Position numbers and translations under genes: made by a program. Shown in pieces: positions 8,230-30,680 of a DNA stretch of 61,059 nucleotides (position 1 is its first letter; each line of letters starts with the position of its first letter). Location of the stretch: positions 1 through 61,059 of the IMG/VR virus record IMGVR_UViG_3300036806_000045. One strand, 5' to 3'. The notes under the pieces are model-generated. The model did not search any database, had not been told where the DNA came from, and saw only the letters and a list, made by a program, of their open reading frames with translations. The stretch comes from a virus (Duplodnaviria > Caudoviricetes).

Positions 8230-10016
8230 TCAGCTTGCTCCGTCCAAGCTGGCGGCATCTGGCCATCAAGGTCAGCAATCGGCGTCATGTAGCGGCCGGT
8301 GATCTCGTTGAAATCCAGCGTCACCACTGCGCCGCGCCGTGCCCACCGACGAAATCTTGATTTCCACACGTGAAGCTCGACGGAACCGGCTTGTGGGGAA
8401 TGCAGCGTCAAACCGAGATCAGCCTTGTTCGCCCAATGCTGACTGCCGCTGATCGAATATGGCCCAGGCGCGACCAGCTTCTCGCCCGGCCGCAGCGGAA
8501 GCGGCTTCGCTGGGTGAGCGATAATCCAAACGTTGCATCCGTGTCGTAGCGCAAATGCACGCAACCGCTGTAGAGCGCGACCGATATAATCCGTCTCGCT
8601 CATGTCGGCCTTCTGGTGATCGATCTCATTCCACGGGTCGATCAACAGGTCAGTCACGCCGTCTCGCAACACAGCGGCGCGCGCACGTTCAAGCACCCAA
8701 TCAAGCGCTGGCGCATCGTCCTCGGCATCACAGACCAGCATCGTTATCCGATCGGACAGCCACATCTCGGCGTCAGCGATCTCAACATCAGTCATGCATT
8801 CCATGGCCGGATTTGGATAAAATGGCTTGCCGACGAATACTTCAGCGCACTGTGCTGCAAAATGTTCCCAAGGTTGATGCTCAGGCGAAAACACTGCCCA
8901 CCGGCGCGCATGATCGGCTGCGGTGTGCACCATCACGAACCGAGTCCAGCTTGTTTTGCCGTGCGTGGGATACCCGGTGACGATGCACAGCCTACCTTCT
9001 GCCGGAAGCTTCAGCACGGCGTCGCTTGCGCGTACGCCGGTCGTCATTGTGCCTGGCGCCGGACGAGCGCGCAGGGAGAGCAGCGTGCCCGGCTTGATAC
9101 GCTGCAATCCCTCGATGGGATAAGGCTGTGCGGATTGCACGGCGGCGACAACCGCATCCGGTCCATGCAGCCGCAGCACGTCGCAGGCGTCTTTGCAGTC
9201 ATCCGGCCACGTCACGATGTAGCAGCGGTGACGACCAAGGCGCCGGGCGAGTTCCTCACGGAGAGCAAGACCAGCCCTGTCGGTGTCACCGGCCAAGACT
9301 ACGCGCCGCGCTTTCGCGAGAATGTCACCATGCGTGCGGAGCGCCTCGAACCGCTTATCACCACCGCCTGGTTGGGATGGTGCTCCGTCCTTCAGCGTGA
9401 CCGCATGCGGAAGGCCGCACTCGAACATCGCCATGACGTCGGGCTCGCCTTCGACCCAGACAATCTCGTCCGGAGCGTTGCCGAGAGCATCGATGTTGAA
9501 CAACGTGTGCTCGGCGTTCGGCTCCTGCAATTGCGGCGTCTTGGCCGGGTGCGGGCGATATTTCCGGTTCACCACGTTGCCCTGCCACACGTAGGGGAAC
9601 ACGATGCAGGGGCTTTCGCCGATCGGATCTGCGAACCGTCTGGTCACTGCGTAGCACCCGAACGCACTCACGGTTCGGTAGCCAATTTTGCGCTCGGAGA
9701 AGAAATCGTAGAGCCACTCGGGCCGGTTCTCTCGCTGCTCGGCGGTGTGCTCACGCGGCTTCTGCCGCGGCTGCTGACGCTCGATAGGTGGCGTATCGTG
9801 GCCGCTGCGCACGCCGTCGTGCCAGCCGCATGAGCCTCGGTGGCACACCCACTTCGCGCCTTCGCCATCGGCATCGACGGTGACTGACAGGCTGACTTCG
9901 CGCGTTTTACCGCCCTCGCATTTCGGGCATCGGATGTGCTCGTTGCGGCCGGGCTCGAAATGCTTCAGCCGGATGCCGACGTTGGCCAGGGCTTCGAACA
10001 GCGTGCTCGGCATCAA
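8226..10016 (-). CDS. Primase-helicase (T7 gp4/Twinkle-like)
   Basis: Zn finger CPKC...CHRGSC, TOPRIM VEGEPD and GDTDRAG, Walker A TGYPTHGKT, LIDPWN and IIAHP. Confidence 0.92.
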   Translation of the reverse strand: MMPSTLFEALANVGIRLKHFEPGRNEHIRCPKCEGGKTREVSLSVTVDADGEGAKWVCHRGSCGWHDGVRSGHDTPPIERQQPRQKPREHTAEQRENRPEWLYDFFSERKIGYRTVSAFGCYAVTRRFADPIGESPCIVFPYVWQGNVVNRKYRPHPAKTPQLQEPNAEHTLFNIDALGNAPDEIVWVEGEPDVMAMFECGLPHAVTLKDGAPSQPGGGDKRFEALRTHGDILAKARRVVLAGDTDRAGLALREELARRLGRHRCYIVTWPDDCKDACDVLRLHGPDAVVAAVQSAQPYPIEGLQRIKPGTLLSLRARPAPGTMTTGVRASDAVLKLPAEGRLCIVTGYPTHGKTSWTRFVMVHTAADHARRWAVFSPEHQPWEHFAAQCAEVFVGKPFYPNPAMECMTDVEIADAEMWLSDRITMLVCDAEDDAPALDWVLERARAAVLRDGVTDLLIDPWNEIDHQKADMSETDYIGRALQRLRAFALRHGCNVWIIAHPAKPLPLRPGEKLVAPGPYSISGSQHWANKADLGLTLHSPQAGSVELHVWKSRFRRWARRGAVVTLDFNEITGRYMTPIADLDGQMPPAWTEQAE

Positions 10017-11319: not shown

Positions 11320-11807
11320 GCCGCCACCGCCATGCCCCTGGTGCCCGTCAGAAAGGCCCACGCGGCGGTGGCATCAGCGGCATCGTAGTCAGGGCCACCC
11401 ACCGAACTCGGCACGCTCCAGCCCTGTGAGCCGCACCACGCCACGACGTCATCCTTGGTGGCATTGCCGCGGCCGACAGTGCGCGAACGCACACGGTTCA
11501 CATTGCATTCGATCAGGCGAACCTCGCGCCGCCAGCAAATCACCTTGGCCATCATGGCGAGACCGAGAGCGATCGCGCCGGCATTGATGCTCTTATGGTG
11601 CGGGATGGCCGCCTCAATGCCGACTAGCGCCGGATCGAACAGCGTGATCCGGTCTGCTAGCCAATCGGCGAGCGCTGCACCGATCGCGCCGTCTTCCGGA
11701 CCGCGCCCGATCAGCTGCACGGAACCCATGCGCGGCGACTGGCCAGGCGCGCCCACACACCAACCGGTTGAGGTAGCAAGATCGAGCGTGAGTACTACGC
11801 CCTTCAT
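11316..11807 (-). CDS. RuvC-like Holliday junction resolvase
   Basis: LTLDLATSTGW, IEAA, GRGNATKDDV and DAADA motifs. Confidence 0.8.
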   Translation of the reverse strand: MKGVVLTLDLATSTGWCVGAPGQSPRMGSVQLIGRGPEDGAIGAALADWLADRITLFDPALVGIEAAIPHHKSINAGAIALGLAMMAKVICWRREVRLIECNVNRVRSRTVGRGNATKDDVVAWCGSQGWSVPSSVGGPDYDAADATAAWAFLTGTRGMAVAA

Positions 11808-12409
11808 GCAGCCGGCCGATCTTCCGGATTGCCTGATGTTGCACGGCGTCCCTGCGATTTCGGCTTCGTCAGTCCCTTCGCGAGATGCGCTTGCCCGCGA
11901 TGCCAGCCTGCGCGCCAACTGGTGAACTCGTCAGACGCTTCGGCTTGGTGGTGTGGATTATCGTCAATTGAACGGCCATTCAGCCCGGCGCGATAGCCGC
12001 CATCATCGGCATCGAAAATGCGCTGCTTCTGCGCCTCCTCGCTATCGTCGGTGAAGCGAATCGGTTCTTCTGACGGCGGGAACAAATCCTGCTGATGCAA
12101 CGGCATGTTCAGCAATGCCGCATAGCGCACGTAAGTGCGTTCCTCGTCGATGACGTCAGAAAGTTCGCGGCGCCGATCGGCTATGACACGCACCAGCACA
12201 TCCTGCTGGATGCCCGCCTTCTTCGCCGCCTTGAGCATGGCGCGACGCTGGCCAACGAGCGACTTGCGGGCGTCGTTTACTTCATCGATCTCATTGTCTT
12301 TGGCGATGATTTGCCGCGCGAAATCGCGGATCAGTTCGACGCTGGGGCCATTGTGCCCGGCTGACGGCGTTTCATCGGCACCATTCGCATGCCCGTTCTT
12401 CTTCGCCAT
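11804..12409 (-). CDS. GapR/DUF2312-like DNA-binding protein with an RMF-like C-terminal motif
   Basis: Coiled N-terminus with AKKAGIQQDVLVRVIADRRR...Y; C-terminal GYRAGLNG..NPH...WRAGW. Confidence 0.6.
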   Translation of the reverse strand: MAKKNGHANGADETPSAGHNGPSVELIRDFARQIIAKDNEIDEVNDARKSLVGQRRAMLKAAKKAGIQQDVLVRVIADRRRELSDVIDEERTYVRYAALLNMPLHQQDLFPPSEEPIRFTDDSEEAQKQRIFDADDGGYRAGLNGRSIDDNPHHQAEASDEFTSWRAGWHRGQAHLAKGLTKPKSQGRRATSGNPEDRPAA

Positions 12410-12450
12410 CTCTCTCTCCTGTTCAACGCGCTATCCGGCGCGGTTGTGTG

Positions 12451-13401
12451 TTACGGCCGCGCCTCGAACTGGAACGGCCGGTGTCCGATTGCGCGCGCCT
12501 TGGCGTTGACGGTCGCCAGATCGGCGCGCGTTTCCATCTGAATGCCCCACACGGCTGCTCTTGCGCGGATGGTTTCGAAGTCCGTGACGATCGGCGTGGT
12601 GGTGTCGATCTGCTGCTCCGGCATCCGAAGGGCAGCGGCGAGCCGGTTGGGACCGAGATTTGGCCGTGGCGTCGGGGCCTTCGCCGGAGGTTCCCAGCGG
12701 ATCCCGAGCGCGATCGCGCGCGCTTGCATCTTGCCTCGATTGGGGCATTCCGGTCCCGGCATCGCGGCAATCGCCGGGTGATAGAGCGACGGATATTCGC
12801 CAGCCTTGATTCGCCTTTCGAGTTCCGCCCGCCGCTCCGGCGTTAGCCAATCGCCAGGCTGACGCGCGACGATCTCCGGTTGGGGCTCATCCGGGGGCGC
12901 TTGGGGCGCCTCTACCACAAGCGTTGTTGCCGACGCCGAATACATCCGGAAAGCATCGGCTAATGTTACGGGCGCGGTGGTGTGGTCGAAACCTACCGGC
13001 CGCCTGAGACCGCGTGAGGATGCGCGAGCTGCAATGCCGCCGTTCGATACCGCGGGCCCGGGGAGTGCATTGAACTGCTTTGCAATGGCCGCGATGGCAA
13101 CGCCGGCCGGATACAAGATATCCAGAAGGGCACCGCGCTCAGGAGTTACCTGTGGGCCAAGATGCGCGGACTTTACGAGCACCGCTGGGGCATCCGGCAT
13201 CTGCAATACGGCAGATGGTTCAGGCGTCACGACGACCGGAAGTTCAATAGGATCGCCGTCAATAGATCCAAGGTCTCGCTTGATCGCCTCGGTCGTCAGC
13301 GCCCTGGCGTACAACTGGACCGCCGACGCCAGTCCGTCGATCGCCGCGAGCAGCTCGGGCGCTGGCCTCAACTCGACAACGATGGTGATGGCGCCGTTCA
13401 C
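12451..13401 (-). CDS. Hypothetical protein with two GcrA-like HTH repeats
   Basis: Two copies of TPER..L......G.....I...PGP......A..LG. Confidence 0.5.
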   Translation of the reverse strand: MNGAITIVVELRPAPELLAAIDGLASAVQLYARALTTEAIKRDLGSIDGDPIELPVVVTPEPSAVLQMPDAPAVLVKSAHLGPQVTPERGALLDILYPAGVAIAAIAKQFNALPGPAVSNGGIAARASSRGLRRPVGFDHTTAPVTLADAFRMYSASATTLVVEAPQAPPDEPQPEIVARQPGDWLTPERRAELERRIKAGEYPSLYHPAIAAMPGPECPNRGKMQARAIALGIRWEPPAKAPTPRPNLGPNRLAAALRMPEQQIDTTTPIVTDFETIRARAAVWGIQMETRADLATVNAKARAIGHRPFQFEARP

Positions 13402-20466: not shown

Positions 20467-20806
20467 CGACGCCCCCCGCTGGCTCGACGCAGAAGGCGCC
20501 GCCAAGTACATCAGCGTGAAGCCGTCCTCGCTGCCGCGCCTGGTGCGCGAGGGCCGAATCCCCCCGCCGAACCGCGAACTGGGCGAGCGCCGGCCCCGCT
20601 GGGACCGCCTGGCACTTGACGCGGCGTTCGAGGGCGGCACAGCGTCTACGGACGTGCGGGCGGTATTCCAAGGAGTCGCCGATGAAATTGCGGCCGAAGG
20701 GTCGAAAGGCCGGCCGGGTCGTCAGGCACACTCTGGCAGACGGAACGGCCAAGGAATACCACTACGCCCCGCACCGTCGGGAGCCGAAAGAGCAGATCGG
20801 CGCTGA
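20459..20806 (+). CDS. xis: Excisionase (AlpA/Xis-like HTH)
   Basis: WLDAEGAAKYISV...LVREGRIPPP...RWDRLALD; overlaps the 5' end of int. Confidence 0.75.
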   Translation: MPDDAPRWLDAEGAAKYISVKPSSLPRLVREGRIPPPNRELGERRPRWDRLALDAAFEGGTASTDVRAVFQGVADEIAAEGSKGRPGRQAHSGRRNGQGIPLRPAPSGAERADRR

Positions 20807-21671
20807 CAGCCTCCACACGCTGATCGCGGCATTCCAGCGCAGTCCGAAGTGGCGGAATCTGTCCGCCGCCACCCAGCAAAATTACATCCACTACCTGAAA
20901 CCGCTTCACCGCGCCGCGCATGTGCGCGTGACGGAGATCCGACGTCGCGATCTCGTCGCTGTCCGCGATCAGATAGCAGCGTCCCGCGGCGACGGAGCAG
21001 CGATCGGCTTTGTGCGATCGGTCTCGGCGCTGCTGGCGTGGGCGGTCGAGAATGACTGGCTCGAGTACAATCCGGCCCGTGGACTGGCCAAGGACCTCGC
21101 ACACGGGCATCTGCCTGCATGGCGCCCAGAGGACGCCGCCATCGCCATGGAGCGCCTACCGGAGCCTCTGCGGCGGGTGGTCGTCCTGGCGCTCTACACG
21201 GGCCAGCGCCGCGGCGATCTGTGCGCCCTGACCTGGGCGGCGTACGATGGACGCGCGATCCGGTTGACGCAGGAGAAGACGGACGAGCCGCTGGTCATTC
21301 CCTGCCACCCGGAGCTGAAGGCCGAGCTCGACGCGTGGCGGGCAGGACCGGTTGCCGCGCTGCCATCAGCGCCGATCCTGACCGCGCCGGGCGGCAAGCC
21401 GTGGAAGCCCAATCTGCTGTCGCACTACTTGCCGCCCGCGCTGGTGCGCATCGGCCTGTCCAACGAGTTGAATGTCCACGGGCTGCGGAAGCTGGCGGCC
21501 GCGACACTGGCCGAGGTCGGCTGCACGGAAAAGGAAATCGCAGCGATCACCGGGCATAAGACGCTTGGGATGGTGCAGCTCTACACCAAATCTGCCGATC
21601 AGCAGAAGCTGGCCGGCGCCGCGATGGTCCGGTGGATCGGACAAACCGGGACAAATAAACAAAACCGCTAG
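20682..21671 (+). CDS. int: Tyrosine integrase
   Basis: TGQRRGD (R), QEKT (K), HGLR, GH and LY catalytic pattern; AGGAG at 20671. Confidence 0.95.
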   Translation: MKLRPKGRKAGRVVRHTLADGTAKEYHYAPHRREPKEQIGADSLHTLIAAFQRSPKWRNLSAATQQNYIHYLKPLHRAAHVRVTEIRRRDLVAVRDQIAASRGDGAAIGFVRSVSALLAWAVENDWLEYNPARGLAKDLAHGHLPAWRPEDAAIAMERLPEPLRRVVVLALYTGQRRGDLCALTWAAYDGRAIRLTQEKTDEPLVIPCHPELKAELDAWRAGPVAALPSAPILTAPGGKPWKPNLLSHYLPPALVRIGLSNELNVHGLRKLAAATLAEVGCTEKEIAAITGHKTLGMVQLYTKSADQQKLAGAAMVRWIGQTGTNKQNR

Positions 21672-21891
21672 GAATATCAGAGGGTTATATGCGTGCGATC
21701 TTCGTCATGATAAGATGGAATCGTTGATTTGATTGATGATTTTGGACAAATGCAGCGGGTGGTCCGGCTGCGGCGTGAGTTCATCACCTTCCAACAAAAA
21801 AGGTGAATTCCGCAGCCGCCCTAGGCGGCCCGATACAAGATTCGCCTAGGTCGCGTAACGGTCGGAGGCGGCCGGCGGGTTTGTGTCAGGT
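21639..21891. other. Candidate attP region with two hairpins
   Basis: Non-coding, partly AT-rich gap after int; GGACAAA occurs three times; two inverted repeats at 21765-21818 and 21820-21850. Confidence 0.5.
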
Positions 21892-22158
21892 TTACTCGGC
21901 ATCGGTGACATCATCCTCAAAGTCTCCATTCTCGATTTGATCGAGTGCCGCGTTGATGACGGCCGCGCGATCCTCTCTGTCACCGGCATTCGGCCCCCAT
22001 GTGGCATGAGCCTGGACAACGCCCATTGCCTTGAAACGTTTGCGTAGCCGATCCTGCTCTGGTGCGGTGGTTCGGTTTTCGTAGCCTATCCATTCCGACA
22101 GCTTGTGAAGCCCCGCGTCGATAGCTTCCTGGTCACGAGGATCGGTGGTTTCAGACAT
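21892..22158 (-). CDS. Hypothetical protein, 88 aa
   Basis: Last ORF of the tightly overlapped operon downstream of the serine recombinase. Confidence 0.65.
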   Translation of the reverse strand: MSETTDPRDQEAIDAGLHKLSEWIGYENRTTAPEQDRLRKRFKAMGVVQAHATWGPNAGDREDRAAVINAALDQIENGDFEDDVTDAE

Positions 22159-22534
22159 GGGGTTGTTCCAACTTCATAGTGAGACGATAGCCGACGTGGC
22201 CGTCTATGTTGGTCAACCCCTGGCTTGCTGCCCATGTGTCGAAGAACACGCTCTCAGGCCAAGGGACCGGCCCTTCCATGCCGGCGTCCATCCACTGAGT
22301 CATCGAATGCATGACGCCAGCGTGGTATCCGTGCCCAAATCCACCGAACTCACGAATGATCTTGAGCGCAATGCGCAGTCGTATCACCCGCGTTCCAGCG
22401 CGCGCCGCTACACGTTGGTAGTGGACCGGACAGTCGCACTCTCGACCGACCATGCCCAAGCCATTGTGACTGAGTTCGCAGTCGCAGAGATCGAGCGGTT
22501 CGGTGGTTCGGATTTTGTCAGGCATTAGTTGCAA
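22151..22534 (-). CDS. Hypothetical protein
   Basis: Overlapping ORF in the same operon. Confidence 0.6.
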   Translation of the reverse strand: MQLMPDKIRTTEPLDLCDCELSHNGLGMVGRECDCPVHYQRVAARAGTRVIRLRIALKIIREFGGFGHGYHAGVMHSMTQWMDAGMEGPVPWPESVFFDTWAASQGLTNIDGHVGYRLTMKLEQPHV

Positions 22535-22721
22535 GCTCCTTCCACGTCCATACGACAGCGGAAGTTGAAAGCATGATTGCGGCGGGAAGGGCCAAGTGCT
22601 GGAATTGGGTCACGCTCAGCAGAAACCAGACAACCCCGGCACCAGTCAAAACGCCACGACATGCAGCCCCGATAAGCCGCGTCTCTCTGCGATAATCATC
22701 GGTGGTTTGGTTTTCACTCAT
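22518..22721 (-). CDS. Small two-TM membrane protein
   Basis: Two hydrophobic segments; ATGA overlap. Confidence 0.6.
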   Translation of the reverse strand: MSENQTTDDYRRETRLIGAACRGVLTGAGVVWFLLSVTQFQHLALPAAIMLSTSAVVWTWKELATNA

Positions 22722-22936
22722 GGCGCCGCAACCTCCATCTCGTCCCAGCCCAACAGTGAGATGCGATCATCGATGTCACCTAGTAGTTCATCCATCAGGC
22801 CATAACCCGAGAACTCGAATTCCTGATCTGGCACATCATTGACCAGCCGACGCACACGGATGGCATAGGTGATCGTGGTTTTGTCGGTCACTGACTGATC
22901 CTCAAAATGGGGAAGGACTATCGGAGGGGTCCACAT
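22718..22936 (-). CDS. Hypothetical acidic protein
   Basis: Overlapping ORF in the operon. Confidence 0.55.
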   Translation of the reverse strand: MWTPPIVLPHFEDQSVTDKTTITYAIRVRRLVNDVPDQEFEFSGYGLMDELLGDIDDRISLLGWDEMEVAAP

Positions 22937-23114
22937 AGGACTGCCTCAAGGCGGCGGCTACCGCGTCAGCCTTCTCCCGAGCCATGTAGCCACTGCCCAC
23001 GACTAAAAGCACCCCATCAGGCAGTCGGACATACCACTCCGTAGTGCCGCCCATCTCGCCAGCGATGTGCCGATGGCACACAACGGCAGCGGTGGTTTTG
23101 GGGTTAGCCGGCAT
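22902..23114 (-). CDS. Hypothetical protein
   Basis: Overlapping ORF in the operon. Confidence 0.55.
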   Translation of the reverse strand: MPANPKTTAAVVCHRHIAGEMGGTTEWYVRLPDGVLLVVGSGYMAREKADAVAAALRQSYVDPSDSPSPF

Positions 23115-23331
23115 TGTATTTCACTCCATGCTTCTTGCACCACGCTCGACTGCCGCAGAACAATTCGCTGTTTCGGTTCGGGCATTCCCAGTCGCACTCC
23201 TCGGAGCCCGCCTTGAGGCATTGGCCATCCGGCATGAGGCCACAATCCTCGTAGCCGTCGCCGTCTTCTTCATCCCAATCGCGAGGGTCATCGTCGTAAT
23301 ATTCCGGCTCCGCGGTCGTTTTGTCGGTCAT
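23104..23331 (-). CDS. Cys-rich acidic protein
   Basis: DCGLMPDGQCLKAGSEECDWECP; ATGA overlap. Confidence 0.65.
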   Translation of the reverse strand: MTDKTTAEPEYYDDDPRDWDEEDGDGYEDCGLMPDGQCLKAGSEECDWECPNRNSELFCGSRAWCKKHGVKYNAG

Positions 23332-23894
23332 GACGTTTTACCTTCTGCCTTCGAGATCGCGGCATCAATCACATCGGCTATCCACTGATGTGGCAGATCG
23401 ATCTTGCCTTCTCGGTCCGCCTTCTGTACGGCCAATAGCGCATCCAGTAAGTCTGGCGCGGCGGCGATGAGGCGCGCGTTTGCGGCATTGTCGATCAGGT
23501 CCGCAATCATGCCGTCTCGCATCGCTGGGACAATCATGTTGATGTTGCCCGTGTGGAATATGGCCCACGGCCCTGGGGTTTCACCCTCAGCCTCTGCTAT
23601 GGCGGCATGAGCCAAATCAAACTCGGCTGTCTTGCGGTCTGCCACGCTTACAACGGCCCGGAGCGCCGCCAGCAGTTGAGGCGCTGTAGCCATTAGGCGC
23701 GCCGCCACCGAGTCTCCCAGGTGCATTCTCGCAAGCGCTTCAGTGAGCGCGCGGGTAATATTCATTTCGCGTTCGGTCGTCCGTGGAGAATGCCCTGGAC
23801 ATTCAATCCAGTCGCATCCGCCTTCGCCAGCTTTGCGCCCACAATGTGAGCAAGCGTCGTTGACCGTGAGTAAGTCGGCGGTCTTCTCACTCAT
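23328..23894 (-). CDS. Hypothetical protein with a duplicated ARL(I/M)A.AP.LL.AL motif
   Basis: AARLMATAPQLLAAL...AIAEAEG and NARLIAAAPDLLDAL...AISKAEG. Confidence 0.65.
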   Translation of the reverse strand: MSEKTADLLTVNDACSHCGRKAGEGGCDWIECPGHSPRTTEREMNITRALTEALARMHLGDSVAARLMATAPQLLAALRAVVSVADRKTAEFDLAHAAIAEAEGETPGPWAIFHTGNINMIVPAMRDGMIADLIDNAANARLIAAAPDLLDALLAVQKADREGKIDLPHQWIADVIDAAISKAEGKTS

Positions 23895-24513
23895 CGGATT
23901 TTCCTTTCTCGGCGAGCGCTCGATCGCGGGCCTTGATGAAGCCGGAGACAGTCAAGCCTGCGGCGCGAGCGCCAGGCTTCGTGCCCAGCTTGGCGAACTC
24001 CAGGATGGCGTCAGACGTATGCTTCCGAGCAGCGCCGCCCACCCTGCCCTCGGACCGTGCCCGAGCCAGCCCGGCCATGGTGCGCTCTTTGCCGATGCCC
24101 GCCTCGAACTCGGCGAACACCGCCAGCATCCCGAACATCGCCCGGCCCATAGGCGTCGAGGTATCCATGCCAGGCGTCGTCAGGACCCGCAGATTGGCGC
24201 CCTTAGCCTGGATGTCCTGCGAGGTCTGGTAGAGCTGCATGGCATTCCGGCCGAGCCTGTCCAGCTTCCAGATCACGACGGTATCGCCTTCGCGCACGTC
24301 CTTCATCATCGCCTGGAACTCGCGCCGCTTTTTGATGCCGGTCCCGCTCGCCTTCTCCCAATATATGTCGCGGGCGTCCACGCCGGCTGCTACAAGGGCA
24401 TCAATCTGCAATTGCGGATTTTGGTCGGCCATGGACACTCTCGCGTAGCCTATTAGGTGCGGTTCGGCCGGCGGTTCGGGTTGCGATTTCCTGTTCGATG
24501 CAGATTTCGACAA
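23887..24513 (-). CDS. Small serine recombinase (resolvase/invertase, Hin/Gin/Pin-like)
   Basis: GYARVS catalytic Ser, KLDRLGR, FAEFE...ERTMAGLARARSEGRVGG and a short C-terminal HTH. Confidence 0.95.
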   Translation of the reverse strand: MSKSASNRKSQPEPPAEPHLIGYARVSMADQNPQLQIDALVAAGVDARDIYWEKASGTGIKKRREFQAMMKDVREGDTVVIWKLDRLGRNAMQLYQTSQDIQAKGANLRVLTTPGMDTSTPMGRAMFGMLAVFAEFEAGIGKERTMAGLARARSEGRVGGAARKHTSDAILEFAKLGTKPGARAAGLTVSGFIKARDRALAEKGKSDE

Positions 24514-24531
24514 GGCGGCGAAACTTTCTAT

Positions 24532-24573
24532 CTTGACGGTTAACTATACGGGGTATACTTTGACGGTGTCAAG
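24532..24573. promoter_or_regulatory. Divergent promoter/dyad between recombinase and cassette array
   Basis: Minus strand TTGACA-N18-TATAGT; plus strand TTGACG-N15-TATACT; CTTGAC...GTCAAG and TATAC-GGG-GTATA dyads; TTGACGGT occurs twice. Confidence 0.65.
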
Positions 24574-24594
24574 GCGAACCAGCGGTCGATAACG

Positions 24595-24798
24595 ATGCCC
24601 CACAGACACGGCAACTCATCGAAATATGTTGCGCGTCAGATCACACTCTCGACGGAGATTGACGATGCACTGCGCACCATTTGCGGGCGCGCTGGCAAGT
24701 CGCCCAGCGAGGTGGTGCGCGTCATCCTATCGCGCGATCCGGGCATCGCTAAGTTGCTGCGGCCCGCGTCGAACGATCTGATGGCCGTTCCTGAATAA
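24595..24798 (+). CDS. Ribbon-helix-helix (CopG-like) regulator heading the array
   Basis: RQITLSTEIDDALRTICGRAGKSPSEVVRVIL strand-helix-helix pattern. Confidence 0.65.
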   Translation: MPHRHGNSSKYVARQITLSTEIDDALRTICGRAGKSPSEVVRVILSRDPGIAKLLRPASNDLMAVPE

Positions 24799-24824
24799 CC
24801 CCCCTAGACCCCGGAGCGAAATTG

Positions 24825-24986
24825 ATGCCGCAATTGATCGGTGACAACTGGGTTAGAACGCCGACTGAAGCGGACGAAATGCGGCGACAGTGGAAGCGCT
24901 GGTATCTCCAGAACTTGCCGACGAACGATGAGCTACAGGAACTTGTCGAGTGGGCGAAACGTCGTTCCGCTCAGAATGCAACGTAA
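24825..24986 (+). CDS. Array cassette 1, 53 aa hypothetical (MPQLIGDNWV...)
   Basis: Translated by hand; runs exactly from junction 1 ATG to junction 2 TAA. Confidence 0.7.
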   Translation: MPQLIGDNWVRTPTEADEMRRQWKRWYLQNLPTNDELQELVEWAKRRSAQNAT

Positions 24987-25000
24987 CCCCGGTGAGAGAA

Positions 25001-25192
25001 ATGGCCCGCGAAGATCTACACTTCGACATGATGAACGCGATGACCGACGTGGTTCTCAGGCGCGTTGAAGGCTGCATCAAAAACCTGCGCGCTGATACGT
25101 CGGCCGTAGCCCATGAACATCAGGTCGGGTTCGAGGCTGGCTATCGTGCGGCAAAAGTCGCCATGCTCGACCTGCTTGCCGATTGCACCTAA
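25001..25192 (+). CDS. Array cassette 2, 63 aa hypothetical (MAREDLHF...)
   Basis: Junction 2 ATG to junction 3 TAA. Confidence 0.75.
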   Translation: MAREDLHFDMMNAMTDVVLRRVEGCIKNLRADTSAVAHEHQVGFEAGYRAAKVAMLDLLADCT

Positions 25193-25206
25193 CCCCGGTG
25201 AGTGAG

Positions 25207-25479
25207 ATGACGCAGTTCAATGACATCCCGACTGGTCCGCACTTCGCAATCCTCGGCCAGACTTCGGTGTATATACCTGGCGATGAGCGTTCGAGAACGC
25301 ATCCTGGGCACGGCTATCCGGCCAGCACTGAGTACTACATCACCTATCGCGCTTTCACGGACCGCGCCGAATGGGAGTGCGAGATTGAGCACTTGGCGGC
25401 GCGTGGCGACAGCTTCCGAGCCATCGTGGTCACTCCAGCTAAAGTGACCACTTCGACATCCGTCACAGTGAACACCTAG
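25207..25479 (+). CDS. Array cassette 3, 90 aa hypothetical (IPGDERSRTHPGHGYPA motif)
   Basis: Junction 3 ATG to junction 4 TAG. Confidence 0.78.
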   Translation: MTQFNDIPTGPHFAILGQTSVYIPGDERSRTHPGHGYPASTEYYITYRAFTDRAEWECEIEHLAARGDSFRAIVVTPAKVTTSTSVTVNT

Positions 25480-25497
25480 AACCCCCCGGTGAATGAG

Positions 25498-25740
25498 ATG
25501 GACACACGACATATGCAATTCGCGCACCCAGAATCAGCGGTGCCGGTAGCAGTTCAAAAGTTCGCAGATGTCGGACCTGGCCAGTGGTGGTTCGTCCATC
25601 ATCCTGACGGTTTCCTTATCGAATGCGCAACCGAGGTGCGAGCTAAGCAGATAGCCTACGAGATCAATGCAGGACGATCGTCGATGCAGGCGAGGGATGC
25701 GATGGTGCCGTTTAGACCTCACATTGACCCAATATCCTAG
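25498..25740 (+). CDS. Array cassette 4, 80 aa hypothetical
   Basis: Junction 4 ATG to junction 5 TAG. Confidence 0.72.
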   Translation: MDTRHMQFAHPESAVPVAVQKFADVGPGQWWFVHHPDGFLIECATEVRAKQIAYEINAGRSSMQARDAMVPFRPHIDPIS

Positions 25741-25760
25741 AACCCCAAAGGAGAAAGGCG

Positions 25761-25928
25761 ATGGACTTCAACGCATGGCTGAACGAACTGAACGCAGAAT
25801 CGAAGCGCCGCGGTTATGCGGGCGCCGATGAGTTCTGGCAGGGCACGGGAGCCGACTGCTGGCGCCCTTCCTACGATGATGGCATGACGCCGGTAGACGC
25901 TCTCGCTGATGACGCGTCCTACCTCTAA
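25761..25928 (+). CDS. Array cassette 5, 55 aa acidic hypothetical (MDFNAWLNEL...)
   Basis: Translated by hand; AAGGAG upstream; junction 5 ATG to junction 6 TAA. Confidence 0.75.
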   Translation: MDFNAWLNELNAESKRRGYAGADEFWQGTGADCWRPSYDDGMTPVDALADDASYL

Positions 25929-25953
25929 CCTAGAACCCGGTGAGGAACTGACA

Positions 25954-26148
25954 GTGAGTAAGATTGTCCAGATCGCAGTGATGAACTTGGCCGAAGAGCG
26001 CACCGCTGAAGGCGTTGGCATCCGAGAGGGCGGGGACCTGCTATTCGTTCTGACCGACGACGGAAAGATTTGGGAGCGGTTCAATCGTCGTGACTGGGTG
26101 GCCGTCCCCTCGCCTCCCGGCACTGACGGATTCCAGCCCGTATCGTAA
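25954..26148 (+). CDS. Array cassette 6, 64 aa hypothetical (KIVQIA...LTDDGKIW)
   Basis: GTG after junction 6 with GAGG upstream, to TAA at 26148. Confidence 0.7.
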   Translation: MSKIVQIAVMNLAEERTAEGVGIREGGDLLFVLTDDGKIWERFNRRDWVAVPSPPGTDGFQPVS

Positions 26149-26176
26149 AGCCACCCCCTAACCCCGGATTATCACG

Positions 26177-26647
26177 ATGCACGAAGACTACGATGACATT
26201 AGGTCTAAGATCGCACAGGCGCCACAATGGTTCGATGAGTATGCTGTGCCTCGCTATTGCACCTTTGAGCCGAAGCGATGCGCTGATATCTATTGTGATG
26301 AAGCGGTATTGGCCGAGATTACTTGCCAAGGCTGTGGGGCGGAATTCCGTGTGGCATTTAGCCAAGGTAGCTTTGACCGCTTCGGACGCGACGGCCGCCG
26401 TCTGGCGGATGACATTCGTGCGCGCGAATTGCATTATGGAGATCCGCCAAATATCCGCTGCTGCGCGGCGGGTCCGACTATGAACAGTGAGCCTCGTCGC
26501 GTGTTGCAGTACTGGCACACACACCACAAAGAATACGTCGGCGAGAATGGCATCGTCACTGACATGGCGTATTTCGACTGGCGGCGAGATCCAACGCTGG
26601 AAATCGAAATCGAGCCGGAGTGGGTCTCCGGCGGACGTGCCCTCTAA
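26177..26647 (+). CDS. Array cassette 7, 156 aa Cys-containing hypothetical (CQGC; LHYGDPPN)
   Basis: Junction 7 ATG to junction 8 TAA. Confidence 0.8.
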   Translation: MHEDYDDIRSKIAQAPQWFDEYAVPRYCTFEPKRCADIYCDEAVLAEITCQGCGAEFRVAFSQGSFDRFGRDGRRLADDIRARELHYGDPPNIRCCAAGPTMNSEPRRVLQYWHTHHKEYVGENGIVTDMAYFDWRRDPTLEIEIEPEWVSGGRAL

Positions 26648-26661
26648 CCCCGGCGAGTGAG

Positions 26662-26872
26662 ATGAGTGAGATTATCGACGCGATCAGGCTGGCAGACCGA
26701 GTGTTGGATAAGCCATACATTGGAGGCGCTTGAGGAAAGCGTGAAACTTCAAAGCCATTATGCCAGCATTCTAAACATGCACGACGGCGGTGAGCGGTTG
26801 CAGTTCGAGACTGCTCGTGATTGGCTTGACCGGCTCCGCGCCGTTCGTTCCGCAACGACTGAAACTGCCTGA
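26662..26872 (+). pseudogene. Array cassette 8, apparently frameshifted or internally deleted
   Basis: Junction 8 ATG frame stops after 23 aa (MSEIIDAIRLADRVLDKPYIGGA); the +1 frame (ALEESVKLQSHY...) ends at the junction 9 TGA. Confidence 0.55.
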
Positions 26873-26880
26873 ACCCCCCC

Positions 26881-28974
26881 CTACCGCGTAAAACCCACCT
26901 GAGCGAACTTGAACTCGGTCGCGCCGGCACTTTGAACCGCCGCTGTGTCGACGCAGAACTTCATGGCGTTGGTCGGGGACCGGTTCGCATCCATCCAAGC
27001 GCGCGCCGTAATCGCGTTCGGATCGGCAATCGCGTCGATCAGTGCTCCGAGGCTCCCATAACGCAATGCCGCATAGGCAGGATCGCCCCCGGTGATCTGG
27101 TCGACGGGCGGCTGGTTGTTCGGGTCGGCCAGCCGGATCGTGGCTAACGTCGGCCAATCCGATGCGAGCGTCCCAGTTGATCCGGTGAGCGTCAGCTGGT
27201 AGGGCCACGCGCCCTCAACGGGGTACCCCAGATTGCGGAACGGCCCGGACAGGAAGCTCGCGGTCTCCGCCAGCACGTCGGCGCACTCCATGCCGAGCCT
27301 GTGCATCCAGGCCAGCACCATCGCGTAGTAGTCGACCTGCCACATGGGAATACCGGCCCACACGGCGCCGCTCGATAGCTGCCCTGGGATCAGCGCCAGG
27401 TCTCCCTGGAACGGCCTGGCGAACGCCATATAGTCGCGCAACGCCACGATGTTGCCGGCGACGATCGTCCGCAGCGCGGTCGACAGATAGCGGGCATCCG
27501 GGATCAGCGCGGCACCGAGCATCAGCGTTCGGAGTGACCACGCCATCGCGCGGGTTTGGCCGTTGCCCACGGTGAACGGGAGCGCCGACGCGTTGGATGT
27601 CGGAAAGCTCACGACGATGGACCTGTTGCCGTGATCGTCCACCTGCGTTGACTGCGTGGCCGCAGCCTGGGCCTCCAGGTCATCGAGCCACATGCGCCGT
27701 CCCGTCAGATACCACGGAACCGCCGCAGCACAGCCAGCGTGCGCGCTGTCGATCGTCCAGCCGTTGCCCTGCGAGAGCTGCTGGATCTGCTGGCCAGGGA
27801 AGTCCGTTGCCGAGAACCACTTGCCACTGGCCCGGTCGCGTAGATGCCACGGCACGGCGCCGAAGCCGCGCAGCATCGGCAGCGTGGCCAGATAGGCGCC
27901 TGGATCCTGGGAGATTAGCCAACTCGCGACTGGACCGGGCATGGGGCCTATCTCGTCGCGGTCGCCGGTCGACGGGAAGTATCGCGTCACACCACCATCG
28001 GCCAGTGGCGCGATCGGTGGCCATGCCGAAACGGGAATTCCCGTAACGCCCAGATCGTCCCGGTGGATCATCAGGCCGCACTGTCGTAGCAGCTGTGTGT
28101 CAAACATCGGATGGACCGGCTGCTCGTTGACCGTATGCCGCCAGACCTGGCCTAGCGCATGGGTGTTGCCCTGCGAGAAGCAGAACAGGCCGGAGTAGCG
28201 CGCGTGGTTGAGGGTGAAGGTGTTTGTCGGTGGATCGAACGCGGTCAGCTCTACGTCAGGCTCAAGCGAGTAGCCGTCAGCACGTAGGGCCGAGACGCCA
28301 GTGTTGATTATTGGAACACCGTTCACTTTGCCGATGACGGTTGCCGTGGTGCCGACAACGTTGGCGATAAAGGAGCAGCCATCCAACGAGTACGAAGCAA
28401 TCTGTCCCTCACCTTCGATTCTCACGTCGTAAGAGAGGTTCGGCACCAACGCTGGCGCGGCAGTGCCGATGTCCACCAGCGAGCGGGAGAAGCCCACATC
28501 CACGCGGGTCGGGGTGCCATCACGGAAGCAGGCCACGTCAACCACAAGCTCGAAGTCAGGCGATAAGTCGGGAACCGGGATGTAGACGCGACCCTCCGTC
28601 ACGAGCGGCCCGTTGCGCCATGGATCATTTTGCCAACTGCCTTGCAGTGGGATGGTGATGGGAGCTGCACCAGCTACGGCGATCGTAACCACCGCGTCGG
28701 TCACCAGGGCAAGAGGCGTCCCTACAAGTGCCCCACCAACCGTCAAATCCCCCGGCGCCCATTCGCCCATCGCCAGCGCTGGCACTTGCACCGCGACGAG
28801 GGCGTGCTTGACGCTGCCGTCTGGGCGGCTCTGCAGTACGTCCACCTGCGCTGGCTGGTTGCCTATCAACAGGCCAGCGCCTCGTGGCAGAAAGCCGGGC
28901 AGGAACGGATGCGCGAACGTGACGGTGCGCGGCTGGGTGGGAACGTCGAAGGGGTGGAAGGCTAGGAATGTCAT
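26881..28974 (-). CDS. 697-aa protein, possibly polysaccharide-lyase-like (alpha/alpha barrel)
   Basis: PAQVDV...PDGSVKHA N-terminus; TGDRDEIGP, DSAHAG and GQTRAMAWSLRTL in a helical C-terminal half. Confidence 0.45.
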   Translation of the reverse strand: MTFLAFHPFDVPTQPRTVTFAHPFLPGFLPRGAGLLIGNQPAQVDVLQSRPDGSVKHALVAVQVPALAMGEWAPGDLTVGGALVGTPLALVTDAVVTIAVAGAAPITIPLQGSWQNDPWRNGPLVTEGRVYIPVPDLSPDFELVVDVACFRDGTPTRVDVGFSRSLVDIGTAAPALVPNLSYDVRIEGEGQIASYSLDGCSFIANVVGTTATVIGKVNGVPIINTGVSALRADGYSLEPDVELTAFDPPTNTFTLNHARYSGLFCFSQGNTHALGQVWRHTVNEQPVHPMFDTQLLRQCGLMIHRDDLGVTGIPVSAWPPIAPLADGGVTRYFPSTGDRDEIGPMPGPVASWLISQDPGAYLATLPMLRGFGAVPWHLRDRASGKWFSATDFPGQQIQQLSQGNGWTIDSAHAGCAAAVPWYLTGRRMWLDDLEAQAAATQSTQVDDHGNRSIVVSFPTSNASALPFTVGNGQTRAMAWSLRTLMLGAALIPDARYLSTALRTIVAGNIVALRDYMAFARPFQGDLALIPGQLSSGAVWAGIPMWQVDYYAMVLAWMHRLGMECADVLAETASFLSGPFRNLGYPVEGAWPYQLTLTGSTGTLASDWPTLATIRLADPNNQPPVDQITGGDPAYAALRYGSLGALIDAIADPNAITARAWMDANRSPTNAMKFCVDTAAVQSAGATEFKFAQVGFTR

Positions 28975-29141: not shown

Positions 29142-29218
29142 CACGCCACCCTCGGCGCCAGGGTGACGGTGCGCGCGGCGGTGGGTTGGTCGAAGGGGCG
29201 GAAGGCGAGGAAGGTCAT
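29141..29218 (-). pseudogene. Truncated duplicate of the 5' end of the 697-aa gene
   Basis: [19 protein letters not shown] versus MTFLAFHPFDVPTQPRTVT; 46 of 56 nt identical. Confidence 0.8.
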
Positions 29219-29529
29219 GGTTTCGTGTCCGGAGGAATGTCCCCCATATCCCAATTCGCGAGCGTCAGAAACACGTGCCACTCGCAGCCGTCAGGTTGTT
29301 CCGGATAATTGGTTCCGCGCTTGTGGTAGAAAGAAGCGGTGACGGTCCCATCGGCGTGTACGTGGTGCAGTCCTATTCCGGTAACGTGACCACAATTGCA
29401 CCGGATCAATGGCTTGAGCGGGCGCCCGGTCCCGTATTCTGTGACTTTGTACCAGCCTGGCTTTCCCACCACTGGGAAATCCTTATAGACACTCTCCCCT
29501 TCGGGCAGCCGCGGAATGATAATGTTCAT
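29215..29529 (-). CDS. Small putative Zn-binding protein
   Basis: CNCGH...GTVTASF...GCEWH; ATGA overlaps. Confidence 0.6.
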
Positions 29530-30653
29530 GCGAACCTCGGCGCCAGCGTCCCGCCAGCATTGCTAATCGCCGCAGTGAATGGTGCCGCGGCGAGATTGGT
29601 TGCCACAACAGGCGGCGGAGGAGATGGCGGAGACACGGGCGGAGGCGCCCCCGTCGCGCCACCTGTTCCGGATGATCCGCTCGGCGACGGTTCAGAGCCG
29701 GCACTCAGCGCGGCGATCTGCGCCGCAGTCAGCGTGCCTCGGAACACCATCATCGCACGCCAGCGGCCGGTGAAGGACGGGAACGGCGTCGCCGCGGCGG
29801 GATCGGCGCCAATCGTGCCCCCGTCCGGCGCCGTGGTGAACATGACGTCGCCACCGCCCCAGACCGGGCTGCTATTGCCATCCGTCCGCGTGTCCACGTT
29901 CACGGACAGCGTATCGGGCTGGCCGGCTACCGGCGTGAGAAGCGTCACGCCCATGAACCAAGTGCCGGCGGACACCGAGCCAACAGTCTGTCCGTTCGTG
30001 GCGTTCGGCGAATCGTTGTCCACGCCCTGCCCGCCCGTCGGTGTCCATCGAGTTCCGTAGCCGCTCGCCCAGAGCCAGAACAGCATCCCGTTCCCCGGCT
30101 TGCGGGCGCACAGCCACGTCACGGGATCGTTGCCGTGCGCGATGTCGATGCTCGCGGCGTCCGGGTTGCCGATCCACACGATCGACAGCGGCCCGGCGTT
30201 GACGTTGCGCCACACGCCGTCGCCTGGGGACAGAGCGACAAACGTAGAGGCGTCCAGTTGCAGCGCCTGACCGACAGGCGCGGCCGACAATGCGATCGGC
30301 CCATGAACGGTGCCGTCCTGGCCGTGGCCGCTTTCGTCGGGGATCGTCGTGTCAACGAGTGACGACGCTCGCCAATAGCCGAGCATCGGTGGCCACGCAT
30401 TGGTGCTGCCGCCGCCGGTGTTGGTGGTGCCCGTGGCGCCGGTTGTGCCCGTGCTGCCGGTGGCGCCGGTCGAGCCCGTGCTTCCCGTGGCGCCTATGCT
30501 GCCTGTCGCGCCCGTTGTACCAGTGGAGCCTGTCGAGCCCGTCGCCCCGGTACTTCCCGTGGCGCCCTCGAGTACGGCCACCCGCGCAGTGAGCACATCC
30601 ATCTCAGCAGTCAGCGCGTCGAAATCCTCGATCGTTGGCACATTCACTGGCAT
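29526..30653 (-). CDS. Collagen-like (Gly-X-Thr) repeat plus LamG/ConA-like domain protein
   Basis: [19 protein letters not shown]... then LGYW...[10 protein letters not shown]...FTGRW...LTAAQIAAL; AAGGAG upstream. Confidence 0.7.
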
Positions 30654-30680
30654 CAGAATCACTCCTTGCATTCACACAAC

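Follow-up and report, generated by a model that had tools for sequence, protein, structure and literature searches.

The window analyzed here is the complete 61-kb genome of a temperate soil phage (61,059 bp). Within it, a plus-strand operon of nine small ORFs adjoins the gene for a Gin-like small serine recombinase (23887-24513, minus strand), and the same order of elements recurs at 9 of 9 boundaries: stop codon, AACCCC, Shine-Dalgarno (SD) sequence, and start codon. With about even confidence, we read the array as a hypervariable accessory operon in which this linker would both serve translation and act as a recombination hot spot. Genes are probably swapped between related phages by recombination at the linker.

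A first-pass annotation had placed a leftward resolvase/invertase gene beside an array running against its surroundings, with one motif at nine boundaries and an overlapping layout for most other small genes. These elements were confirmed. The recombinase gene matched PF00239 (E 1.9e-40), the genes flanking the array on either side lie on the minus strand, all nine motif strings were present at their positions, and the small genes pointing left overlap by 4-17 nt. The array opens with a called ORF of 67 aa (24595-24798), possibly a ribbon-helix-helix (RHH) regulator. The RHH identity it had been given was not upheld, as the Pfam RHH_1 match (E 0.03, 14.7 bits) fell under the 20.5-bit cut-off and a single-sequence fold (pLDDT 59.9) gave the two expected helices without the strand.

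Eight cassette slots follow on the plus strand, and seven hold intact ORFs as claimed. ORF 1 (53 aa, 24825-24986), ORF 2 (63 aa, 25001-25192), and ORF 4 (80 aa, 25498-25740) matched no family. Families of unknown function were matched by ORF 3 (90 aa, 25207-25479; phrog_29558, E 3.3e-12), ORF 5 (55 aa, 25761-25928; phrog_519, E 1e-6), and ORF 7 (156 aa, 26177-26647; phrog_27600, E 1.2e-17), while ORF 6 (64 aa, GTG start, 25954-26148) matched phrog_16915 weakly (E 0.0061). The eighth slot (26662-26872) does not contain the intact ORF attributed to it: the motif-tied ATG at 26662 opens only 23 codons (to 26733), and a 68-aa ORF begins at GTG 26666 in another frame, ending at 26872. Over its last 38 nt, which include the stop codon and motif, the slot shares 87% identity with the 3' terminus of an unrelated gene in L005, which encodes an exonuclease.

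The linker comprises a stop codon, which often forms part of CTAA or CTAG, an A-A-C-C-C-C run, an SD (GGTGAG, GGAG, or CTGAGG) at the usual spacing, and a start codon 16-23 nt past the C-run. The plus-strand junctions are, in order, TAACCCCCCTAGACCCCGGAGCGAAATTGATG (24796-24827, a tandem motif), TAACCCCGGTGAGAGAAATG (24984-25003), TAACCCCGGTGAGTGAGATG (25190-25209, family D2), TAGAACCCCCCGGTGAATGAGATG (25477-25500), TAGAACCCCAAAGGAGAAAGGCGATG (25738-25763, preceded by ATATCC), TAACCTAGAACCCGGTGAGGAACTGACAGTG (25926-25956, with only three C), TAAAGCCACCCCCTAACCCCGGATTATCACGATG (26146-26179, a tandem motif with a weak SD), and TAACCCCGGCGAGTGAGATG (26645-26664). The terminal motif, TGAACCCCCCCCTAC (26870-26884), has no gene start after it and abuts the stop codon of a convergent 697-aa gene; the arrays of L004, L005, L006, L045, L162, and L164 likewise end in motif copies.

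As a boundary motif, the linker is restricted to this operon. The pattern AACCCCGG matched the window 7 times (1.71 expected; 0 of 100 shuffles reached 7), with 4 of the 7 matches inside the array, and the 20-mer TAACCCCGGTGAGTGAGATG matched 3 times at up to 3 mismatches (0.00 expected). AACCCC occurs 16 times on the plus strand of the 61,059 bp, 8 of them within 2.1 kb (24797-26872). At -3 to +24 of the stop codon, A[AC]CCC was counted for 6 of 8 array ORFs versus 4 of 82 others; this count used a rough ORF caller and missed two array ORFs because their frames were wrongly chosen. By hand, the motif was seen near the stop codon at 9 of 9 boundaries. Junctions resemble one another more within an array than across arrays, with recurring types in the window (GGTGAGTGAGATG, four times), L004 (ACTGAGGCCGACATG, three times), and L005 (GATCTGAG, twice). 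The L053 initiation region CCCCGGATGAATGAGATG is near-identical to the fourth window junction.

The junctions are unstructured. They showed no dyad or hairpin and no Rfam match, and neither promoter nor terminator was found in the linker. For the eight window junction RNAs, folding was not better than for shuffled sequences (z -0.85 to +1.99), and most of the eight predicted structures left the C-run unpaired. We propose that the linker is an open re-initiation region that would supply each new ORF with the same translation signal. A single promoter would transcribe the array, overlapping back to back with that of the recombinase gene. A promoter region had been noted in the gap between the two (24533-24572) and is present, but the reported dyad is a pair of overlapping divergent sigma-70-like promoters. 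The leftward one reads TTGACA-18-TATAGT (24572 to 24543, 11/12). The rightward one, TTGACG (24533-24538), 17 nt, and TACTTT (24556-24561), is weaker; it scored below the promoter-scan threshold and was read by eye. The TTGAC..N..GTCAA arrangement also occurs in 15 relatives.

Relatives of the recombinase (53-81% identity) reside in otherwise unrelated phage backbones. For example, the window has only a Tyr integrase and the recombinase in common with G001, and the recombinase and two tail-region genes with G002. The comparison of relatives put forward with the original proposal came out in its favor: the recombinase gene, both divergent promoters, and the linker are conserved, while array length differs and the ORFs are almost entirely different (L004, L005, L006, L045, L046, L047, L049, L051, L053, L054, L007, L162, L009, and L164). 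The strict junction pattern was found on the array strand, with at least one junction, in 15 of 20 clade members; among the other five, two had <360 nt of sequence, one had variant spellings, and two had a variant linker. Pattern scans recovered multi-junction arrays in the L004, L005, and L006 contigs, and AACCCCNR clusters lie in G001 (6937-8173), G002 (7141-8251), and G003 (25316-26816). Among 73 ORFs from 14 arrays, proteins matched only between the near-identical L006, L048, and L049. At the DNA level, L004 and L164 have a single cassette in common, with differing junctions. The first-pass annotation had the cassettes perhaps encoding anti-defense or host-takeover functions; in the arrays of relatives, a Pfam family scored above its cut-off in just 1 of 40 ORFs. 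We suggest that recombinase, promoter, and array travel between backbones as one module, with the recombinase as a conserved neighbor.

The recombinase is the sole conserved protein of this module, which is one argument for regarding the motifs as stoperator-like DNA sites, bound by the DNA-binding domain of the recombinase or by the first-ORF product to silence the operon in a lysogen. Such silencing would resemble that by the L5 repressor, which PMC3203893 also mentions. The sites are asymmetric, share one orientation, and sit in short intergenic spaces, and the promoter spacers of L004, L005, L045, and L047 contain T[TA]ACCCC-like words, as does the window spacer on its bottom strand. However, such words are missing from the promoters of L006, L007, L050, L051, L053, and L054, the first ORF differs among relatives and so is not conserved as the opening gene, the conserved core spans just 6-8 nt, and the breakpoints described below are left unexplained. 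We consider this reading very improbable.

The accessory-operon reading draws on where homology between close relatives ends. In four comparisons, the linker was the exact break point. Up to TAACTCAACCCCGATTGAGGAT, L006 and L049 share 99.6% identity, and beyond it they are unrelated. Over 948 nt ending just past ACAACCCC, L162 and L009 share 92% identity, and their unrelated cassettes end in an identical 14 nt. L007 and L053 lose similarity after GAAACCCCGG. Finally, L162 and L164 have the right flank in common from the last motif on, with arrays of 3 versus about 12 ORFs. As the linker is the only sequence common to unrelated ORFs and related arrays, recombination would act there. Homologous or microhomology recombination at the linker could then add, delete, or replace ORFs. 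Against this reading, the homologous stretch at some breakpoints measures only 6-14 nt, a short length for homologous recombination to work efficiently.

The exchange may not require the recombinase. L232 and L267 are 99% identical apart from a 241-bp one-ORF unit, bounded by a 17-nt repeat within the junctions TAAACCCCGGAGCCCACCATG and TTTTTAACCCGGAGCCCACCATG. No recombinase homologue was found in this phage contig, and a RecT-like gene, recognized by eye, lies upstream of the unit. An indel of one ORF between the repeats of a similar linker points to homologous recombination. The first-pass annotation had named arrays lacking the recombinase as favoring homologous-recombination linkers or translation signals over its own proposal, and the L232/L267 indel is a case of this kind. 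In the window, no single-strand annealing protein was identified, another observation against our reading; in its favor, genes for a RecE-like exonuclease and for a RuvC-like resolvase are present.

A precedent for such a recombination site is provided by the PeSL motifs of T4-type phages. In the excerpted accounts of PMC2839356 and PMC4122927, hyperplastic regions carry these regulatory motifs as repeats that separate small ORFan genes that are not essential; recombination between copies inserts, deletes, and replaces sequence and can set mini-circles free. The window array likewise has repeated motifs between small genes, with gene content that would change by recombination between copies. 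As described there, however, PeSL combines a promoter with a stem-loop terminator, whereas the window linker has no promoter, terminator, or stem-loop and is a putative translation region of 15-25 nt between the cistrons of a single operon.

The original proposal was an integron-like system. Integrons comprise IntI, attI, Pc, and attC cassettes, with attC forming a hairpin, and the repeats of chromosomal integrons are homogeneous within an array. The corresponding layout was found in the window: a recombinase gene divergent from a promoter reading into same-strand, promoterless, mostly one-gene units of unassigned function, each ending in a repeat. Content and length vary between relatives, homology breaks at the motif, and repeats are homogeneous within the array. 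The Gin-like recombinase might run site-specific cassette exchange, an unlikely alternative. Each junction would be a crossover site centered on CC, with one good half-site (..TCCTAAACC), while the right half would be degenerate and double as the SD. Direct copies would recombine to excise one-gene circles, and the reverse reaction or exchange with a co-infecting phage would insert or swap cassettes downstream of the fixed promoter.

Synteny is tight, with a divergent small-ORF array in all clade members with enough upstream sequence and in 0 of 13 loci of more distant recombinases (27-51% identity). The motif arrays found adjoin this recombinase clade, the small L232 case apart, and recurrence of the module in otherwise unrelated genomes suggests a functional tie, both of which count against our preferred reading. 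Variation of the motif sequence between recombinase subclades speaks against the integron reading; that the subclade without the N-terminal extension carries a different linker speaks for it. The motif copies that end the arrays, the 14 nt common to the L162 and L009 cassettes, and the position of the four homology breaks within a few nt of CC also fit a crossover site, although the L006/L049 break lies 10 nt to its right. In contrast to integrons, the window encodes a serine enzyme (PF00239) rather than IntI, its array is phage-borne, and its repeat is short, lacks the attC hairpin, and takes in the downstream gene's SD. For two cassettes, the homologues in other phages were without the motif that the check proposed for the system had sought; for ORF 7, neither motif nor recombinase was found near eight homologues (39-51% identity) in other phage contigs. 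The recombinase-free indel is the same kind of event.

Comparison with the Din-family systems (Gin/gix, Hin/hix, Cin/cix, Pin/pix, and Min/mix) bears on the same question. The recombinase matches phrog_125 'DNA invertase' (E 1.1e-52), and its nearest solved chain is the Gin invertase 4m6f (E 7.6e-32, residues 20-167). It has a TTG start and a 19-residue N-terminal extension, with E17, P18, and H19 invariant in 5 relatives, and it keeps YARVS (Ser27), KLDRLGR, and the ERTMAGL..GR.GG arm, so that catalytic residues and DNA-contacting arm are Gin-like. Its C-terminal domain did not align with Gin. Wild-type Din invertases require inverted sites, an enhancer, and Fis. The array copies are all direct, and neither inverted partner sites nor a Din-type invertible segment was found in the window or four relatives. 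The recombinase gene adjoins tail-fiber genes, but the array ORFs encode no fiber parts. Published Din sites read TTCnnnAAACC-NN-GGTTT (Table 3, PMC3241671), with a hix core of TCCT AAA CC AT GG TTT AGGA (Table 1, PMC3985619). Some junctions match TCCTAAACC-NN-GG, and a subset (ATCCTAAACC-CC-GG) matches the left half of Gin/Hin/Min sites: L005 (twice), L046, and L051 have ATCCTAAACC-CC-GG or -GA or -AG, and a window junction has ATCCTAGAACC-CC. These matches, like the Gin-like arm, also weigh against our preferred reading. Min has many mix sites, of which likewise only one half is well kept (PMC3241671). Nevertheless, the junctions lack the right half GGTTT, full AAACC is confined to a minority of them because the preceding base of AACC varies, and the outer half-site positions, where HTH-domain contacts are expected, are not conserved.

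The linker could instead be a pure expression signal with no recombination role, breakpoints falling merely where unrelated genes abut. We regard this as improbable. On the mRNA, UAA-ACCCC-SD would be recognized by the ribosome itself or by a factor of host or phage origin, serving coupled re-initiation or the processing or stability of the transcript. The single strand, fixed start-codon distance, included SD, and lack of structure are consistent with such a signal, as is the motif ahead of the first ORF in L007, L051, and L053, where an upstream gene is absent. The start-associated sequences (SAS) of Cluster K mycobacteriophages, which the linker also resembles as a start signal in our own reading, offer a precedent. 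In the excerpted text of PMC3203893, SAS are short asymmetric repeats that contain an SD and lie within a few nt of the start codon that follows, in some cases including the upstream stop codon. They have one orientation, serve non-structural genes only, are kept across relatives before genes of different families, and are thought to function in translation. As far as that text goes, the window motif is alike in being an asymmetric, SD-containing, one-orientation repeat before differing genes, but SAS read 5'-GGGATAGGAGCCC rather than stop-AACCCC-SD and occur with different hosts. They are scattered over half a genome with no linked recombinase, whereas the window motif fills every boundary of one operon, ends it, and has such a neighbor. 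The excerpted text reports no breakpoints at SAS.

In other phage contigs, matches to the 14-mer CCTAAACCCCGGAG fell at real gene junctions in 16 of 68 cases versus 23 of 1360 random positions, an enrichment that is partly trivial because the 14-mer contains TAA and GGAG. Putative junction spacers from 165 other loci showed no ACCCC enrichment (18 of 1295, by a crude junction call). Overlapping stop and start codons join the genes of the other small-gene operon in the window, so the linker is not a host requirement. Moreover, terminal copies lack a downstream gene; with nothing translated after the last ORF, a pure initiation signal is insufficient. The L232/L267 indel, too, arose between two linkers.

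The small ORFs of the array (plus strand, ~24595-26884) are joined by a linker that is both real and conserved. Each junction opens with a stop codon, in most cases TAA or TAG within CTAA or CTAG. An A-A-C-C-C-C run with 3-8 C follows, then an SD (GGTGAG, GGAG or AAGGAG), and the start codon comes 16-20 nt after the A that begins AACCC. All nine junction strings listed in the first-pass annotation were found in place, and the ninth (26870) closes the array with no gene following. The motif occurs far more often than expected by chance and is confined to the array operon. A 20-mer form, allowing at most 3 mismatches, had 3 matches in the window against 0.00 expected, and AACCCCGG had 7 against 1.71 expected, 4 of them in the array. 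Plus-strand AACCCC occurs 16 times in the window, with 8 copies falling within 24797-26872. At 25926 and 26146 the upstream ORF stops earlier in another frame, yet the motif keeps its own TAA or TAG, which gives it an identity independent of whichever stop is used. As had also been described, the genes of the leftward operon, in which the recombinase comes first, overlap by 4-17 nt instead, so the linker is not the general style of this phage.

The array had been annotated as an RHH gene with eight intact ORF slots. The slot count breaks down at the eighth (26662-26872), which has no clean ORF. Its ATG at 26662 opens 23 codons, and a 68-aa ORF starts from a GTG at 26666 in a different frame. 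Either the true start is shifted by 4 nt or the slot holds a frameshifted remnant. The last 38 nt of the array (ten codons, stop and motif) share 87% identity with the 3' end of an exonuclease gene in the related locus L005, a gene otherwise unrelated to the eighth-slot ORF. The RHH assignment was not borne out, as the first gene gave only a sub-threshold Pfam match (E 0.03) and a low-confidence predicted fold. PHROG matches, all to families of unknown function, were obtained for four window ORFs; one match is weak (E 0.0061). Positions 24001-27000 have a G+C content of 0.57-0.60, slightly below the genome-wide ~0.62, and GC3 is 0.56-0.71 in array ORFs versus 0.70-0.81 in structural genes.

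The element upstream of the array is indeed a promoter, but the dyad proposed for it is in fact two overlapping divergent promoters. This pair, beside the recombinase gene, reads into the array in the layout by which an integron promoter serves promoterless cassettes. A plus-strand scan of 24600-26870 placed neither promoters nor terminators at the junctions and gave a single internal consensus match (9/12), within ORF 7 at 26409-26437. Junction RNAs folded no better than shuffled sequences (z -0.85 to +1.99), and an Rfam search of the junctions gave no match. Sequestration of the SD by the C-run was not seen in the predicted junction folds. No local inverted repeats or hairpins were found at the window junctions. 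We consider it highly improbable that the recurring motif represents a set of operator-like sites.

The minus-strand gene to the left of the array (23887-24513) encodes a small serine recombinase (PF00239, E 1.9e-40; phrog_125 'DNA invertase'). Its nearest solved chain is Gin (E 7.6e-32, residues 20-167). The nucleophilic Ser and DRLxR motif expected of a resolvase catalytic domain are present: the nucleophile context YARVS and the segment KLDRLGR align with Gin and are invariant in five relatives, and the E-helix/arm segment ERTMAGL..AR..GR.GG is conserved with Gin. An N-terminal extension of 19 residues ends in an invariant E-P-H. The C-terminal residues 168-208 (~40) matched no profile or solved chain and appear HTH-like by eye only.

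Several other features surround this gene. The leftward small ORFs (21846-23894, minus strand) start alike (MSENQTTD, MTDKTTAEPE, MSETTDPRD, MSEKTADL). Copies of a 16-nt family, CGGTGGTTCGGTTTTC (plus strand), lie at 22065, 22501, 22700 and 24469, near the starts of leftward small ORFs and in the recombinase N-terminal extension. A 22-nt inverted repeat (19/22) pairs 21521-21542, at the 3' end of the integrase gene, with 24482-24503, at the 5' end of the recombinase gene; the latter arm contains TTCCTGTT, a word kept at the same place in many relatives. As an invertible segment, this pair was treated as a chance occurrence, since it lies inside two genes and has no counterpart in relatives.

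Recombinase searches returned about 20 distinct members (53-81% identity) from viral and metagenome contigs. Every member with enough upstream sequence followed a common plan: a recombinase gene, a promoter region of roughly 80 bp (TTGAC(A/G)...GTCAA(G/C)) and a row of small ORFs on the same strand, joined by the same linker as in the window. The recombinase and linker are kept and the ORFs differ, a pattern anticipated by the first-pass annotation. With a strict pattern, 15 of 20 members had one junction or more; the other five were two very short loci, one locus with a variant spelling, and L056 and L057. The last two form a recombinase subclade that lacks the N-terminal extension, with the same layout and its own uniform linker (TAAAC(C)..ACGGAGG). 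Among genomes holding recombinase relatives, the motif clusters solely in the array operon in two complete (G001, G002) and one partial (G003). Thirteen loci with more distant recombinases (27-51% identity) held no such array.

The genomes around these modules are unrelated. The genes common to the window and G001 are the tyrosine integrase and the recombinase only, and those common to the window and G002 are the recombinase and two tail-region genes. The shared integrase (window 20477-21644; G001 11522-12668) lies 2-3 kb from the recombinase gene in both, and G001 holds the closest recombinase (81%). The window itself is an entire IMG/VR record: it spans 61,059 bp, carries direct terminal repeats and has a completeness rating of 100%. 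Profile matches show that it is a temperate, contractile-tailed phage. Structural genes recognized in this way encode the large terminase, portal, major head protein, sheath, baseplate, tape measure and a collagen-like tail fibre; other matches were a primase/helicase, a RecE-like exonuclease, a RuvC-like resolvase and the tyrosine integrase (20616-21671; phrog_1), which lies 3 kb from the array beyond another operon. A DNA search of a phage database with window 23300-27000 gave no match, and protein searches of the phage collection returned distant relatives only (TerL at most 41% and recombinase at most 47% identity). No close prophage was found in the representative genomes searched, where the best recombinase match (51%) was in a Bacillus. 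In one soil sequencing run, probably the source of the window and available as contigs, short stray pieces were all that aligned to 23000-28000, and no joint was listed.

Array content turns over extensively. Among 73 ORFs from 14 arrays, protein matches were found only among the near-identical loci L006, L048 and L049. Loci L004 and L164 have one cassette in common (71% DNA identity), with differing junctions on both sides. Between diverged modules, nucleotide similarity spans the recombinase gene and promoter and then ends. The number of ORFs between the same flanks ranges from 3 (L162) to about 12 (L164). Only 1 of 40 ORFs of relatives exceeded the Pfam cut-off, as an Rv2179c-like exonuclease. 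Two arrays carry a tRNA gene, in each case followed by the junction motif: a tRNA-Tyr within L006 (5285-5370) and a tRNA-Arg at the end of L005 (3903-3979).

Homology between relatives was lost at the linker in four comparisons. L006 and L049 are 99.6% identical through the tRNA-Tyr gene and TAACTCAACCCCGATTGAGGAT, and are unrelated from the next base onward. L162 and L009 match at 92% identity across 948 nt, as far as ...ACAACCCC, and are unrelated beyond; their third ORFs are unrelated, yet both end in GAACCATCAACCCC. Similarity between L007 and L053 ends after GAAACCCCGG, and the right flank common to L162 and L164 starts at the last AACCCC. A scan of viral contigs for CCTAAACCCCGGAG revealed another pair, L232 and L267, from an unrelated phage, which are 99% identical and contain three consecutive similar junctions (L232 8220-8750; L267 1-1151). 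Compared with L232, L267 lacks one 241-bp single-ORF unit, and the breakpoints fall inside a 17-nt repeat, CC(C)GGAGCCCACCATG, that two junctions have in common. The linker bounds insertions, deletions or replacements in L006/L049, L162/L009, L007/L053 and L232/L267. The gene just upstream of the L232 linkers, recognized by eye, is presumably RecT-like. The L232/L267 pair points to loss or gain of a cassette, probably via homologous recombination between linkers. That the junction, with its SD and start codon, is an expression signal only is an explanation we regard as improbable.

A bolder explanation is that the recombinase itself drives cassette exchange, making the module a phage-borne serine-recombinase counterpart of the integron. 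A Gin-derived enzyme no longer limited to inversion would act at half-degenerate crossover sites (..TCCTAAACC-CC-GG..), and these sites would also serve as ribosome-binding linkers. With the promoter staying in place, one-gene cassettes downstream of it would be excised, captured and exchanged, and the module as a unit would pass between phage genomes that are otherwise unrelated. Comparison with Din-family sites offers some encouragement. These read TTCnnnAAACC-NN-GGTTTnnnGAA, with one half well kept in Min sites (PMC3241671), and the hix core is TCCT AAA CC AT GG TTT AGGA (PMC3985619). The reading ATCCTAAACC-CC, with GG, GA or AG after it, occurs twice in L005 and once each in L046 and L051; ATCCTAGAACC-CC occurs at one window junction, and the ATCC is non-coding in one L005 junction. 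This subset, beside an enzyme with a Gin-like arm, matches the Din left half and centre, and two of its junctions also have the right half's initial two bases. In contrast, the right half GGTTT is absent, AACC is preceded by T, A, G or C, and the outer positions are unconserved. Moreover, Din invertases act in a layout of two inverted 26-bp sites around an invertible segment, with a Fis-bound enhancer in or near the gene, and no convincing inverted pair was found near the gene in the window, L004, L005, L006 or L045. We view recombinase-driven exchange as a tentative and rather unlikely explanation.

Several observations count against a simple integron analogy. The recombinase beside the array is a PF00239 serine enzyme rather than an IntI-type tyrosine recombinase, and integron attC sites are hairpin-forming imperfect inverted repeats at cassette 3' ends, whereas the window junctions are unstructured; the first-pass annotation had correctly stated that both IntI and attC hairpins are missing here. 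The integron repeat travels with its cassette. Here, the expectation that cassette homologues elsewhere might carry the motif failed: it was absent upstream of homologues of the 156-aa ORF (8 loci) and the 90-aa ORF (1 locus) in other phages, all of them distant (38-51% identity), and no recombinase was found near them. The most telling case is L232/L267, where one ORF was gained or lost on a 10.5-kb contig in which no recombinase homologue was found. Finally, junctions resemble each other more within than between arrays, as would follow if linkers repeatedly underwent exchange or gene conversion with one another.

Wider scans gave few further examples. Those with TAACCCCGGTGAGNGA and AACCCCGAWCTGAGG returned mostly single, probably chance matches, with L146 and L130 as single junction-like cases, and 6 of 118 matches to AACCRTCAACCCC were junction-like, with no array. 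The idea that GC-rich phages use the motif widely at gene junctions was also considered and set aside; ACCCC occurred in 18 of 1295 crude spacers from 165 other loci, a set defined by an ORF-based junction call too loose to carry weight.

The explanation we favor, at about an even chance of being correct, is that the linker serves both translation and homologous exchange. Going by the available portion of PMC3203893, the junction motif shares the traits of SAS: it is asymmetric, SD-bearing, present in one orientation, associated with non-structural genes and kept before unrelated genes. It is SAS-like in kind and not a SAS member, because its sequence is unrelated to the mycobacteriophage SAS given there. 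PeSL, in the available portions of PMC2839356 and PMC4122927, are repeated linkers between which homologous recombination occurs; they carry a sigma-70 promoter and a terminator stem-loop, and the window junctions have neither. A SAS-like start/stop linker may thus act as a PeSL-like recombination point within an integron-like layout, with a Gin-like recombinase alongside. Among the papers listed by full-text literature searches, assessed by title and the opening of the abstract, none described a serine recombinase tied to a linker-joined phage ORF array.

Most unexplored small genes reside in phage genomes, and little is understood of how they are acquired and reshuffled. Here, a compact, recognizable module (Gin-like recombinase, promoter pair and linker-joined ORFan array) recurs in unrelated soil phages, with genes that turn over almost completely from phage to phage. 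Read conservatively, it offers a clear-cut example from nature in which a linker for translation also steers modular exchange. The module marks where to seek accessory genes, with anti-defence and exclusion as candidate roles, and its stop-AACCCC-SD-start order provides a simple rule for locating their true starts. If the linkers prove to be substrates of the recombinase, the module would be the first system for cassette capture to rely on a serine recombinase, with evident uses as a tool.

Outside the module, a 64-nt direct repeat (28911-28974 and 29155-29218; 80% identity) was observed, through which the head of a 46-aa ORF duplicates the N-terminus of a convergent 697-aa gene. The 46-aa ORF is a remnant of an alternative tail-fibre-region gene. 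The tail-fibre gene (29526-30671) contains a collagen-like 9-nt periodic repeat at 30398-30575.
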